A stretch of 47,953 nucleotides of DNA from Bacilli bacterium (GTDB taxonomy: Bacteria; Bacillota_I; Bacilli_A; RF39; UBA660), in contig JAQVSJ010000001.1 of the NCBI GenBank assembly GCA_028700595.1, positions 17,345-65,297 of the forward strand, given 5' to 3'. Numbering within the stretch: position 1 is the first letter of the stretch; each line of letters opens with the position of its first letter. Below are positions 9,996-12,419 of this stretch, in pieces. The notes beneath the pieces are model-generated. The model worked only from the letters and a program-made list of their open reading frames with translations, was not told the origin of the DNA and ran no database searches. The position numbers and the translations under genes are program-made.

Positions 9996-12419
9996 CTACA
10001 TAACTGTTGAATACATACTAAACATAGGCAATATTACTGATAGCAATATAGTACCAACTACAACAGCTAAGAAAACTATCATTACTGGTTCAATAAATAC
10101 TTTAATTTGATTTACTGATACCTTATGTTGTTCTTGATAATAATCAGACACTTTCATCATCATATCACCTAATTGACCTGTTTTTTCACCAGTTAATAAC
10201 ATTTCGTATGCAATTACTGGAAATGCCCAATGATTCTTAAATGAGTTTGAAATAGCTTCTCCCTTTGCTAAATTAGTAATTGTATCAAAAATTAACATCT
10301 TATATATTTCATTATTTGTAACTTTACTCAACACTTCCATACTATCTGTTATAAATACATTATGATTTAACAAAGATCCAAATGTTTTAGTAAACATAGT
10401 TACTTCATTATATATTATTATTTTACCCATAACAGGCATATGCATAAATATCCATTGATTTAAAGTTTTAAACACTTTAATACTTACATAAAGCAATCTA
10501 TATACTATTGCAATTACAACGAGTGCACCAAGAATAAAATATATATTATTTTGTAAAAAATTACTGATATTAATTACTGCACTTGTTATTGCAGGTAACT
10601 CAGCATCTATATCTGCATATATATCTACAAATTCAGGTATTACAAATATTAATATAAATACAATAATAACTATTGCAAATACAAATATTACTATAGGATA
10701 AGTCATAGCAGAAACCATTTGTTTTCTTGTTTTCTCAGTTTCATTATAATAAGATGCCATATCATCTAATGTTTCAGGTAAATTACCTGTTAATTCAGAA
10801 GTTTTAACCATATTAACAAGAAGTCTAGGAAATGAATTTCCTTGTTTTGCTAAAGCTTCACTAAAATTTTCTCCCATTGTCAACTCATATATTACAGATC
10901 TATATATTTGTCTATATGTGGGTTTCTTAGTTTGTTTTTCAAGTATTTTAACAGCAGCTACTAAAGTAATACCTGACTTTAAAAAAGTAGATAATTGAGT
11001 TAAAAAGAATACTAAATCAACCTTCTTGATTTTAATAGTAAATATAGCTTTAGTTGATTTCTTAATAGGTGTTATTTCATATACTTCATATCCTTCAGAT
11101 AACAAATATGAGTGTACATCTAACTTAGAGAAAGCTGAGAACATTGATTTTTCAACTTTTCCAGTTGCTAAATTCTTAGCAACAAATTTATATACAATCT
11201 TCTCTTCACTTCTTACTGCATCTTCACCCTCAAAATCAATAAGAAGAGTTTGTCTTTTCATTTCTCTTCTATTTCTAATATCTTTAACAAAAGATAAACC
11301 TGCATACCATAATTTTATTTTTTCAGAAACACTCTTTCTTTCTTGTTTAGTTTTAATTTTAGATTCTTCTCTTGCTTTCTTAATTAATAAAGCTTTCTCT
11401 TTTCTTTGAAGTAATGCTTCCTTTTTCTCTTTTTTAATCCTTTCAGACTTAGCGATTTTTTCAATTAAATATTTTTGTTTTCTCTTGTTCTTTTCTTCTT
11501 GTCTTTCTTTTCTTTTGTCAGAATAATCACTATAAGAAATATAAATCTTTTTAATAATATTTCCAGGCATCAAAATAAACGCTTTAAATAAGAAATTTCC
11601 TATTTTCTTAAATGTCTTCTTAGAATTTTTAAATAGTTTCTTAATAACCAAACCAATAGTTTTTAAACCAACTACAAAAGATTTAAAGAGATATTTAAAA
11701 AATCTATATATTCCAATAAATATATATTTTATACCAAGCCAAACTCTTTTGAAAAAATACACAAATATTAGTTTATAAATATTAACAAAGAAATAATATA
11801 ATAATTTATATATTCCAATAAATAAATACTTTGTTCCTAGTCCTATATTTATAAATATGTATTTTAAAATCTTATATAAATATATTCCAAAATTTTTAAA
11901 TCCAAATATCAAATATTTAAACATATAATATAATAATTTATATATTCCAATAAATAAATACTTTGTTCCTAGTCCTATATTTATAAATATGTATTTTAAA
12001 ATCTTATATAAATATATTCCAAAATATTTAAAACCAAATATTAAATATTTAAATACATAATATAACAATTTATATATTCCAATAAATAAGTACTTTATTC
12101 CTAATCCTATATTTATAAATATGTATTTTAAAATTTTGTATGAATATATTCCTAAATATTTAAAACCAAATATTAAATATTTAAATACATAATATAACAA
12201 TTTATATATTCCAATAAATAAGTACTTTATTCCTAATCCTATATTTATAAATATGTATTTTAAGACAACAAAAATAGAAATAAATATATACTTTATTCCC
12301 ATAATTATGTTTTTAAAAATATAAACAAAACCTTTTGCTACAGAGATAAATATATTTTTAAAAATCTTACATAAAGATTTAAAAAAACCAACTAATTTAT
12401 TCGGTAAATTAGATCTCAT
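9996..12419 (-). CDS. GspF/PilC-type type II secretion / type IV pilus platform protein with a ~400-aa non-canonical N-terminal extension
   Basis: The C-terminal ~400 aa (from ~res 407, IVYKFVAKNLATGKVEK...) have the typical two-repeat T2SS-F architecture with three TM segments. Residues 1-406 are repeat-rich and unrelated to that domain. RBS GGAGGTG lies before the ATG at 12419. Confidence 0.8.
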   Translation of the reverse strand: MRSNLPNKLVGFFKSLCKIFKNIFISVAKGFVYIFKNIIMGIKYIFISIFVVLKYIFINIGLGIKYLFIGIYKLLYYVFKYLIFGFKYLGIYSYKILKYIFINIGLGIKYLFIGIYKLLYYVFKYLIFGFKYFGIYLYKILKYIFINIGLGTKYLFIGIYKLLYYMFKYLIFGFKNFGIYLYKILKYIFINIGLGTKYLFIGIYKLLYYFFVNIYKLIFVYFFKRVWLGIKYIFIGIYRFFKYLFKSFVVGLKTIGLVIKKLFKNSKKTFKKIGNFLFKAFILMPGNIIKKIYISYSDYSDKRKERQEEKNKRKQKYLIEKIAKSERIKKEKKEALLQRKEKALLIKKAREESKIKTKQERKSVSEKIKLWYAGLSFVKDIRNRREMKRQTLLIDFEGEDAVRSEEKIVYKFVAKNLATGKVEKSMFSAFSKLDVHSYLLSEGYEVYEITPIKKSTKAIFTIKIKKVDLVFFLTQLSTFLKSGITLVAAVKILEKQTKKPTYRQIYRSVIYELTMGENFSEALAKQGNSFPRLLVNMVKTSELTGNLPETLDDMASYYNETEKTRKQMVSAMTYPIVIFVFAIVIIVFILIFVIPEFVDIYADIDAELPAITSAVINISNFLQNNIYFILGALVVIAIVYRLLYVSIKVFKTLNQWIFMHMPVMGKIIIYNEVTMFTKTFGSLLNHNVFITDSMEVLSKVTNNEIYKMLIFDTITNLAKGEAISNSFKNHWAFPVIAYEMLLTGEKTGQLGDMMMKVSDYYQEQHKVSVNQIKVFIEPVMIVFLAVVVGTILLSVILPMFSMYSTVM
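11790..12263 (-). repeat. In-frame tandem repeat, 132-bp period, ~3.6 copies, inside the pilC-like ORF
   Basis: The marker tatattcc recurs at 11809, 11941, 12073 and 12205, exactly 132 bp apart. The encoded unit is LKYIFINIGLG[IT]KYLFIGIYKLLYY[VM]FKYLIFGFK[YN][LF]GIY[SL]YKI. Copies 1-2 and 3-4 are pairwise most similar. Confidence 0.9.

Follow-up and report, generated by a model that had tools for sequence, protein, structure and literature searches.

The 47,953-nt stretch of DNA analyzed here (the window; contig JAQVSJ010000001.1 of an uncultured Bacilli bacterium) has a GC content of ~24%, is coded nearly entirely on the minus strand and carries a pilC-type platform gene whose product bears a long N-terminal extension. 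The gene was delineated from the list of open reading frames (ORFs), two matches to the Pfam family T2SSF and full-length family profiles, and its 807-residue product is identical to the NCBI protein 'MAG: type II secretion system F family protein [Bacilli bacterium]' (MAG, metagenome-assembled genome). A preliminary description of the locus had singled out the extension. Gene and protein divide as follows:

9996..12419, minus strand: pilC-type platform gene, 807 codons plus stop, ATG start
11544..12419, minus strand: module 1 (residues 1-292), putative lysine-striped hydrophobic hendecad (11/3) amphipathic array
11793..12263, minus strand: 132-bp tandem repeat (44 codons, 4 x 11 residues), 3.6 copies, within module 1
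11325..11543, minus strand: module 2 (residues 293-365), K/E/R-rich, net-positive stretch predicted to be helical
11205..11324, minus strand: module 3 (residues 366-405), clade-specific junction motif
9996..11204, minus strand: canonical PilC/GspF body (residues 406-807)

Profile searches identify the C-terminal half as an ordinary member of the PilC/GspF family. Pfam T2SSF (PF00482 / IPR018076) matches it with an E-value of 2e-53 in two stretches, the first of which spans residues 472-595, and has no match in residues 1-406. TIGR02120 (GspF) aligns through positions 1-400 of its 401 and NF052607 (PilC) through positions 4-403 of its 406, both to residues 410-805. The corresponding scores of 270 and 247 bits fall under the equivalog cut-offs of 424 and 700, and thus establish membership in the family, not a named orthologue. 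Identity with ComGB (NF041012) was rejected, given a score of 156 bits against a cut-off of 240, coverage of residues 471-802 only and higher scores for the PilC/GspF profiles. The best PDB match of the body is Myxococcus xanthus PilC (3jc8), and three strongly hydrophobic segments, centered near residues 575-596, 629-642 and 776-797 and predicted as helices by AlphaFold2 (AF2), fit three transmembrane (TM) segments between two cytoplasmic domains. Compared with the platforms of M. xanthus (PilC, 3jc8), Thermus thermophilus (PilC, 2whn) and Vibrio cholerae (EpsF), residues 406-807 form a complete canonical match with a prepilin peptidase gene adjacent. Canonical PilC/GspF proteins have ~400 residues and would start at residue ~407 here. 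Because the full-length profiles reach only residues 410-805, the extension comprises residues 1 to ~406 (nucleotides 11202-12419), a stretch that the curated profiles omit, that has no Pfam match and for which NCBIfam holds no model. These boundaries agree with the preliminary description, in which only the C-terminal ~400 residues looked like a normal platform protein and no characterized platform protein with such a module was known. Likewise, we found no account of such an extension of a platform protein in a literature search, and could not find it described in the literature searched or in Pfam/NCBIfam.

Several features of the DNA indicate that the extension is translated and under selection. 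Its 1218 bp, with a GC content of 18.6%, contain no stop in 406 codons of the coding frame, versus 10-48 stops in each of the other five frames, and the chance of such an open frame is ~4e-22, or ~2e-17 when the repeat is counted only once. This bears out the earlier opinion that the extra 1.2 kb is very unlikely to be open by chance. Two signals precede the ATG at 12419:

12427..12431, minus strand: Shine-Dalgarno (SD) sequence GGAGG, 7 nt before the ATG (upstream sequence GGCTCGGAGGTGTTTAC-ATG)
12456..12484, minus strand: promoter-like site, TTTAAA-17-TATAAT with TG (extended -10, TGTTATAAT), the best minus-strand match to the consensus in the scan

The promoter-like site is identical in a contig of a second assembly (L034, see below), and a consensus promoter match in AT-rich DNA is weak evidence by itself. 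No SD-like site precedes any of the in-frame internal ATGs checked (codons 40, 166, 284 and 387). The ratio of nonsynonymous to synonymous substitution rates (dN/dS) was taken from the sister species (L001/L003, 71-75% identity), for which dS is near saturation and the values are rough. Against L001, it amounts to 0.27 in the array, 0.08 in the K/E stretch, 0.04 in residues 366-405 and 0.10 in the PilC body, and thus lies below 1 in all three modules of the extension. Comparison with L002 and L005, which are more distant, gave ~0.5-1 for the array and the K/E region; these values were not used, because alignments are unreliable there and dS is saturated.

Together with the SD sequence and the extended -10 element, these ratios speak for the ATG at 12419 as the start codon, as initially proposed. 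Met387 (MKRQTLL), which had been put forward as an alternative start, was rejected: it has no SD sequence and sits within a conserved motif where dN/dS is 0.04, its position is occupied by Leu in two of nine aligned homologues (P0087 and P0102), and W371, Y372, L375, F377, V378, K379, N383 and E386, all upstream of it, are invariant in the same nine-sequence alignment. A scan of metagenomes for independent assemblies yielded two contigs of the same species only, both ending inside the gene. One of them, a Joint Genome Institute metagenome contig from another strain (L034, 97.7% DNA identity), keeps the promoter, the SD sequence and the N-terminus, and its frame is open for all 127 codons up to the contig end inside the repeat. 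A stop or frameshift in another assembly, named at the outset as evidence that would speak against the extension, was thus not encountered in these 127 codons. L034 differs by conservative substitutions and by one in-frame indel of 4 codons. None of the indels that separate species or strains shifts the frame, which is open with the same N-terminus also in other species.

Module 1 has an extreme composition. It contains 47 K/R and no D/E, the first acidic residue of the protein being residue 298, and is made up of 18% I, 15% K, 14% F, 13% Y, 13% L and 9% G. Bulky hydrophobic residues account for 67% and aromatic residues for 29%, and ~65% of the array consists of F/Y/M/I/N/K, i.e., residues with AT-rich codons. 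This agrees with the earlier description of residues ~20-290 as nearly free of acidic residues and rich in K-Y-[I/L/F]. Tandem Repeats Finder likewise recovered the 44-residue tandem repeats reported previously, as a 132-bp unit with 96% matches and a 66-bp sub-period. About half of the differences among copies 1-3 are synonymous (2/2, 7/6 and 5/4). The count of 3.6 copies rests on one assembly, since the second one, from the same species, is interrupted within the repeat. As the unit is 4 x 11 codons, copies can be gained or lost with neither the reading frame nor the amphipathic register being disturbed.

This register is the most regular property of the array. Lysines are separated only by 1, 3, 4, 6, 7, 8 or 11 residues, mostly by 7, 8 or 11. 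The internal KY periodicity noticed before is thus real, and its estimate of 9-13 residues gives way to an exact hendecad. Fourier analysis of hydropathy over residues 20-290 gives a single sharp peak at 98 degrees, i.e., 3.67 residues per turn (11/3), with a power of 299 versus a shuffle maximum of 56 +/- 12, a value reached by none of 500 shuffles. The non-repeat flanks show it as well: the peak of residues 212-292 is reached by 0/500 shuffles and that of residues 1-53 by 11/500. Measured against a global 11/3 register, the hydrophobic moment points within 26-67 degrees over residues 1 to ~210, then turns once by ~80 degrees and is coherent again up to ~290. On an 11-position wheel, K/R occupy three adjacent positions with Tyr and Asn beside them, and seven of the 11 positions are bulky hydrophobic. 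AF2, run with a nine-sequence alignment (mean predicted local distance difference test, pLDDT, 62), predicts helices at residues 4-88, 95-191 and 199-281, and a fully helical array would by calculation be ~43 nm long. The Wimley-White interface score of the array is more favorable than that of the true PilC TM helices. The earlier suggestion of a membrane-embedded or membrane-surface amphipathic array is consistent with this analysis of the hydrophobic moment.

Module 2 differs sharply in charge, with 27 K/R versus 13 D/E (35 versus 16 over residues 293-392). AF2 predicts one uninterrupted helix over residues 287-359 with a pLDDT of 67-78, the best confidence in the extension. Eight of the 13 acidic residues of module 2 have K/R at i+3 or i+4, Leu/Ile are regularly spaced, and the C-terminal part is conserved (ERKEKALLIKKA). 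Single alpha-helix (SAH) spacers of the ER/K type occur in myosin VI/X and caldesmon. Like them, residues 293-365 are K/R/E-rich and predicted to form one helix, and the length of this stretch varies greatly among relatives, as expected of a spacer. However, ER/K SAHs are balanced in charge, whereas module 2 is net positive and contains Leu/Ile; a coiled coil, or a segment that binds to the membrane or to the PilB ATPase, would be just as compatible with it. Module 3 follows with the motif WY..LSFVKD..NRRE..RQTLLIDFEG.DA.RS, whose invariant columns run from W371 to S404 (alignment A1) and which is present in nearly all relatives collected from GTDB (see below). The charged linker once assigned to residues ~300-390, regarded as a long helix or spacer, accordingly survives for residues 293-365, for which the single predicted helix agrees with it, and has to be replaced by a conserved motif in residues 366-405.

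Relatives were collected as 31 loci from GTDB species representatives, 26 of which have a complete 5' end. They derive from uncultured gut/rumen MAGs with 23-30% GC and may belong to an RF39-like lineage. Their labels are Bacilli, Mollicutes, Tenericutes or Mycoplasmatota bacterium, or Clostridium sp. CAG:1193, and part of these labels must evidently be wrong. Close homologues all have 635-867 residues. The extension comprises 130-465 residues in 25 of the 26 complete loci and only 33 in the remaining one (L032). A hydrophobic N-terminal module was called by a window criterion in 21 of the 26; three of these modules have only 17-18 residues and could be artefacts that stem from the start codon chosen. 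The segment that follows is net positive in all 26 and, in the loci for which a module was called, at least 62 residues long, leaving aside a heuristic artefact at L001 and L003, in which the automatic boundary was mis-called (351 residues). A correlation of -0.64 between array and linker length includes this artefact, and no conclusion is drawn from it. Among relatives, the array ranges from 0 to ~300 residues, and the K/E tract plus junction motif (from the hydrophobic module to canonical PilC) from ~60 to ~400; relatives of 724 residues have only a short amphipathic patch inside a K/E tract of ~300 residues. The extension is thus a clade-wide feature of three modules with variable length and is not peculiar to this gene.

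A peak at 98-100 degrees is found in arrays of 55-300 residues from L001, L002, L005, L019, L020, L021, L031, L033 and P0002, with a phase concentration of 0.73-0.99 where measured, and the sequences of these relatives mostly cannot be aligned with the present array. P0124 shows the 98-degree peak with a lower concentration (0.68) and one phase shift. It is the 11/3 register, not the sequence, that is conserved. In the sister species, the array has expanded independently with units of 33 bp (11 residues) and 66 bp (22 residues). Tandem repeats also occur in the K/E tract, at L009:9242-9636 (54 bp or 18 residues, 7.3 copies, 94%) and L019:10400-10777 (87 bp or 29 residues, 4.3 copies, 94%). The presence of repeats both in arrays and in K/E tracts implies that either module grows by in-frame repeat expansion, in different lineages.

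P0124 itself (747 residues) is the PilC of an L019-like sub-lineage, with a ~290-residue K/Y/F/I array, almost no K/E tract and only ~50 residues between the array and the junction motif. This architecture implies that large arrays arose more than once and that a long K/E spacer is dispensable when the array is long. As a separate matter of labeling, ten of the loci (L003, L004, L006, L010, L015, L017-L019, L026 and L028) carry the title 'uncultured Muribaculaceae bacterium' (Bacteroidota) and look mislabeled; their GC content is 24-30% and, in the case that was checked (L003 = L001), the genes are arranged in the same order.

The preliminary description had called for a search with residues 1-406 alone. 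An exhaustive phmmer search with residues 1-405 against 1.84 billion representatives returned only 11 matches, some of which are PilCs of the clade. Outside the clade, the array matches N-terminal arrays of 11-/22-residue repeats (RYLWLGVSTVL type; GLAWIGKYLWLGISTPFIYLGR) in apparently high-GC bacteria. In P0123, P0130, P0131 and P0128, these arrays have 130-400 residues, are N-terminal and almost acid-free, and are phase coherent at 11/3. Solute-binding domains follow the array in P0123, P0130 and P0131, with VWA domains as well in P0123 and P0131, and an apparent TM helix lies between the array and the following domains in P0123 and P0131; P0128 (259 residues) consists of the array only and has no Pfam match. 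By sequence, these arrays look like the same kind of module placed on unrelated membrane proteins. Another match (E-value 4.7e-8) is P0126, a phage tape-measure protein of 1952 residues (PhageMin_Tail, TMP_3 and Peptidase_M23), in which residues ~770-1270 display the strongest 98-degree periodicity of all, with a power of 671 over 500 residues. This similarity is probably a convergent low-complexity resemblance. Pfam has no model for the arrays of any of these matches.

An 11/3 periodicity that keeps its phase for hundreds of residues is characteristic of 3-11 amphipathic helices, which extend straight along lipid surfaces, e.g., the giant helix of Plin4 with its 33-mers (PMC5889406). The array shares with the 11-mer lipid helices of apolipoproteins, alpha-synuclein and perilipins a geometry of 11 residues per three turns and the lack of register-breaking indels, and its periodicity is in phase over many repeats (0/500 shuffles; 26-67 degrees over residues 1-210). 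The mixed-charge polar face and moderate hydrophobicity of the class A type are not present in it (0 D/E, 67% bulky hydrophobic, polar 3/11). Whereas alpha-synuclein, to which there is no sequence relationship, has 27% bulky hydrophobic and 3% aromatic residues, the array has 67% and 29%. Additionally, 11-mer lipid helices are soluble and exchangeable, whereas the array is acid-free with a narrow lysine stripe and is fused to an integral membrane protein. Tandem repeats in multiples of 11 are common to both (33-mers in Plin4 and 44-mers here), and binding would be expected to scale with length.

We consider it moderately probable, on the basis of all these data, that the gene encodes a genuine translated PilC-type protein in which module 1 is an in-plane anchor of the cytoplasmic leaflet, with a charged helical spacer linking it to PilC. 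No TM segment lies between the extension and the N-terminal cytoplasmic domain of PilC, to which it is attached, and this places the extension on the cytoplasmic side (topology as in PMC10191384). Module 1 would form very long alpha-helices with 11 residues per three turns, oriented parallel to the membrane and sunk into its cytoplasmic leaflet. A location within the leaflet is suggested by the wide greasy face, the lysine stripe with its tyrosines, the absence of acidic residues and the cytoplasmic position, and we infer an in-plane and not a spanning orientation because K/R are present in every 19-residue window and in every possible loop. The narrow lysine stripe, with the tyrosines beside it, would reach the anionic head-groups by snorkelling, while the wide Ile/Leu/Phe face would lie among the acyl chains, and the length of the anchor could change by 44-codon units without loss of this geometry.

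Module 2, as a net-positive K/E helix, would then be a spacer beneath the membrane that connects the anchor with the first cytoplasmic domain of PilC, the domain that docks on the PilB ATPase. Module 3, a conserved junction, would sit on this same domain and probably provide a specific contact. The spacer from the hydrophobic module to canonical PilC has at least ~62 residues, ~9 nm if fully helical; the radius of the PilB hexamer is ~7 nm. More speculatively, the extension may tether and stabilize the PilC-PilB assembly as a peripheral membrane-bound collar outside the ATPase footprint. It may also stand in for the PilM/N/O sub-complex, an idea prompted by the absence of any recognizable PilM/N/O gene in the pilus clusters of two relatives (L022 and L023, ~20 kb). 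PilM/N/O are thought to stabilize the platform-ATPase pair (PMC10191384), so that the likeness to PilM/N/O (GspL/GspM) would be a functional analogy only, that of a membrane-anchored stabilizing element around platform and ATPase. There is no similarity of sequence or domains, and the extension differs in being fused to the platform and restricted to the cytoplasmic side. As the preliminary description proposed, the extension may replace or recruit a missing partner.

A number of observations weigh against this model. On the octanol scale, many 19-residue windows of the array are negative (median -4.4, minimum -11.9) and overlap with the weaker true TM helices, and AF2 confidence in the array is low (pLDDT 40-55) with an alignment of only nine sequences. 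The distant relatives L022 and L030 have N-terminal hydrophobic segments that lack the 11/3 signal and resemble ordinary TM helices. The array is also far more hydrophobic than the characterized surface-bound 11-mer helices (for alpha-synuclein, 27% bulky hydrophobic), and its extreme variability in length and sequence, AT-codon-biased composition (F, Y, I, N and K) and near-identical recent repeats fit weak constraint. No Walker A motif of a GspE-type ATPase and no prepilin motif were found in any frame of the 48-kb window, and the absence of PilM/N/O genes has the narrow scope of two relatives. Finally, the geometry of spacer and collar is a back-of-envelope argument, and the model as a whole is built on sequence and prediction for an uncultured organism.

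The alternative that survives best, although we regard it as unlikely, is that the extension is a translated but tolerated low-complexity expansion, in which slippage in AT-rich DNA inflated a short anchor and a K/E tract into what is at most a simple tether. The GC content of 18.6%, the ~65% of AT-codon residues (F/Y/M/I/N/K) in the array and the 96% identity of the repeat copies, which makes them recent, are all as expected from such a process, and so are an array of 0 to ~300 residues, a linker of ~60 to ~400 and the extension of just 33 residues in L032. Nucleotide composition, however, does not explain the charges: GAA (Glu) and GAT (Asp) are also AT-rich, yet none of 292 residues is acidic, right beside a tract full of acidic residues. 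Nor would slippage be expected to keep the 11/3 register and its phase across lineages whose sequences cannot be aligned, or to expand arrays independently in units of 11, 22 and 44 residues only. The dN/dS of the array exceeds that of the core (0.27 versus 0.10), which suits the expansion, but it still reflects purifying selection, and no comparable K/E tract or hydrophobic array occurs in any other of the 48 ORFs examined in the window (K/E maximum 0.52 versus 0.62).

A bundle of membrane-spanning or re-entrant helices, i.e., a multi-pass or hairpin anchor that possibly lines a lysine-rich pore, is a somewhat more doubtful reading of module 1. Octanol sums below -5 occur in 103 windows of residues 1-290, reach -11.9 and resemble those of PilC TM2 and TM3, and Kyte-Doolittle means over 19 residues exceed 1.6 at residues 40-60. 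The N-terminal segments of L022, L023, L024 and L030 are like ordinary TM helices without an 11/3 peak, and the Gly-rich spots (GLG and FGF) found every ~22 residues could be turns. On the other hand, each candidate span has one to three internal lysines: every 19-residue window of residues 20-290 holds between one and seven K/R, mostly two or three, and lysines recur every 3-11 residues instead of in loops ~20-25 residues apart. The array thus appears to lack the uncharged spans of at least 19 residues and the positive-inside loops of a multi-pass anchor. Since the candidate loops all carry lysine, the positive-inside rule would keep everything cytoplasmic. A single register coherent over 210 residues has no rationale in separate spans, the helices predicted by AF2 are 85-97 residues long and not ~20-residue spans, and the repeat units are multiples of 11 residues, not the length of a TM segment plus loop.

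Still less probable is a straight hendecad coiled-coil rod, formed by the three N-termini of a PilC trimer, that would serve as a shaft or ruler and either reach into the cytoplasm or thread the central pore of the PilB hexamer. Tape-measure proteins carry units of 11-residue repeats with aromatic markers (PMC3271669), and platform proteins have been modeled or shown as trimers (PMC10191384; PMC10790770). The phmmer match to the basic central region of P0126 speaks for such a rod, and this region shares with the array the 98-degree period, a basic and almost acid-free make-up and length variation by whole units. The tape-measure repeats belong, however, to the ruler of a tail tube, and their hydrophobic sector covers five of 11 positions with 47% bulky hydrophobic residues, versus seven of 11 and 67% in the array, which exceeds the burial of a coiled-coil core. 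Each chain has a charge of +47 with nothing to offset it, so that strong repulsion would be expected between parallel chains in solution. Moreover, a spacer of ~110 residues separates the array from the ATPase-facing domain, and the other array-bearing proteins place the array directly before a TM anchor. Hardly credible is the notion that the upstream 1.2 kb is untranslated, with a true start at an internal codon such as Met387 and a long open frame that is incidental: its weak foothold is that proteomic and ribosome-profiling data do not exist, against which stand a chance of ~1e-17 or less for the open frame, the strong SD sequence at 12419 with none at internal in-frame ATGs, the invariant residues before Met387, and indels that keep the frame between species and strains.

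A bolder version of the in-plane anchor, which we rate as improbable, holds that the array represents an unrecognized class of giant, register-preserving, in-plane bacterial membrane helix that recurs at the cytoplasmic N-terminus of otherwise unrelated membrane proteins, namely PilC in gut Bacilli and solute-binding/VWA proteins in bacteria of high GC content. The array of PilC would make up a collar of adjustable length embedded in the leaflet around the pilus motor, organize lipids or pilins and replace stabilization by PilM/N/O. Such a class would be a much greasier counterpart of the 11-mer helices of perilipin-4 and apolipoproteins. Change of length with preservation of register is known from perilipin-4, apolipoproteins and tape-measure proteins, and no bacterial membrane machine with this feature was found in the literature searched.

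Of the core parts of type IV filament machines, the platform protein is understood least (PMC10191384), and the extension offers a natural probe of it. A first cytoplasmic domain that is tethered could serve as a test case for motor models that have the ATPase turn or lift the platform, and the extension may show how machines without PilM/N/O keep platform and ATPase together. For annotation, the lineage comprises common uncultured gut/rumen Bacilli with reduced genomes, and the start of a PilC of ~700-870 residues should not be 'corrected' to an internal codon.

One further pilus-type gene follows pilC:

9223..9987, minus strand: prepilin peptidase (PilD-type), immediately downstream of pilC, with Pfam domains A24_N_bact and Peptidase_A24

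The order DnaG-RpoD-TrmK-PilC-PilD is kept in L002, and TrmK-PilC-PilD in L001; the remaining genes of the window are housekeeping genes. In L022 and L023, pilC-pilD is followed by pilB on the opposite strand and by two large proteins with prepilin motifs, and in L030, PilB adjoins pilC-pilD. The two proteins (L022:14412-16998 and L023:9006-11547) have class III (prepilin) leaders and comprise 323 and 525-536 residues, respectively, and the larger one of L022 has a C-terminal ALK/LTK-type glycine-rich domain (PF12810). As judged from their sequences, they would make up an unusually large modular pilin pair. An IS30-like transposase lies between pilD and pilB in L022.

Opposite to pilC, a 127-residue ORF (11026-11409, plus strand) is most likely open just by chance within coding sequence. 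It contains the sole terminator-like hairpin of the region (11164-11183, plus strand). Elsewhere in the window, genes for an MltG/YceG-like endolytic transglycosylase (27501-28589, minus strand), VanZ (4959-5591) and a LiaF-TM protein (46618-47268) suggest that the organism probably has a peptidoglycan wall. Several related MAGs are labeled Mollicutes or Tenericutes despite the cell-wall genes of this window. Additionally, a T-box leader (RF00230, 112.5 bits; 46434-46621, minus strand) lies upstream of a gene for a class I aminoacyl-tRNA synthetase with a leucyl-type editing domain (43220-45646). The leader overlaps the listed TTG start of an HD-domain ORF (45651-46472), which probably starts further downstream than listed.

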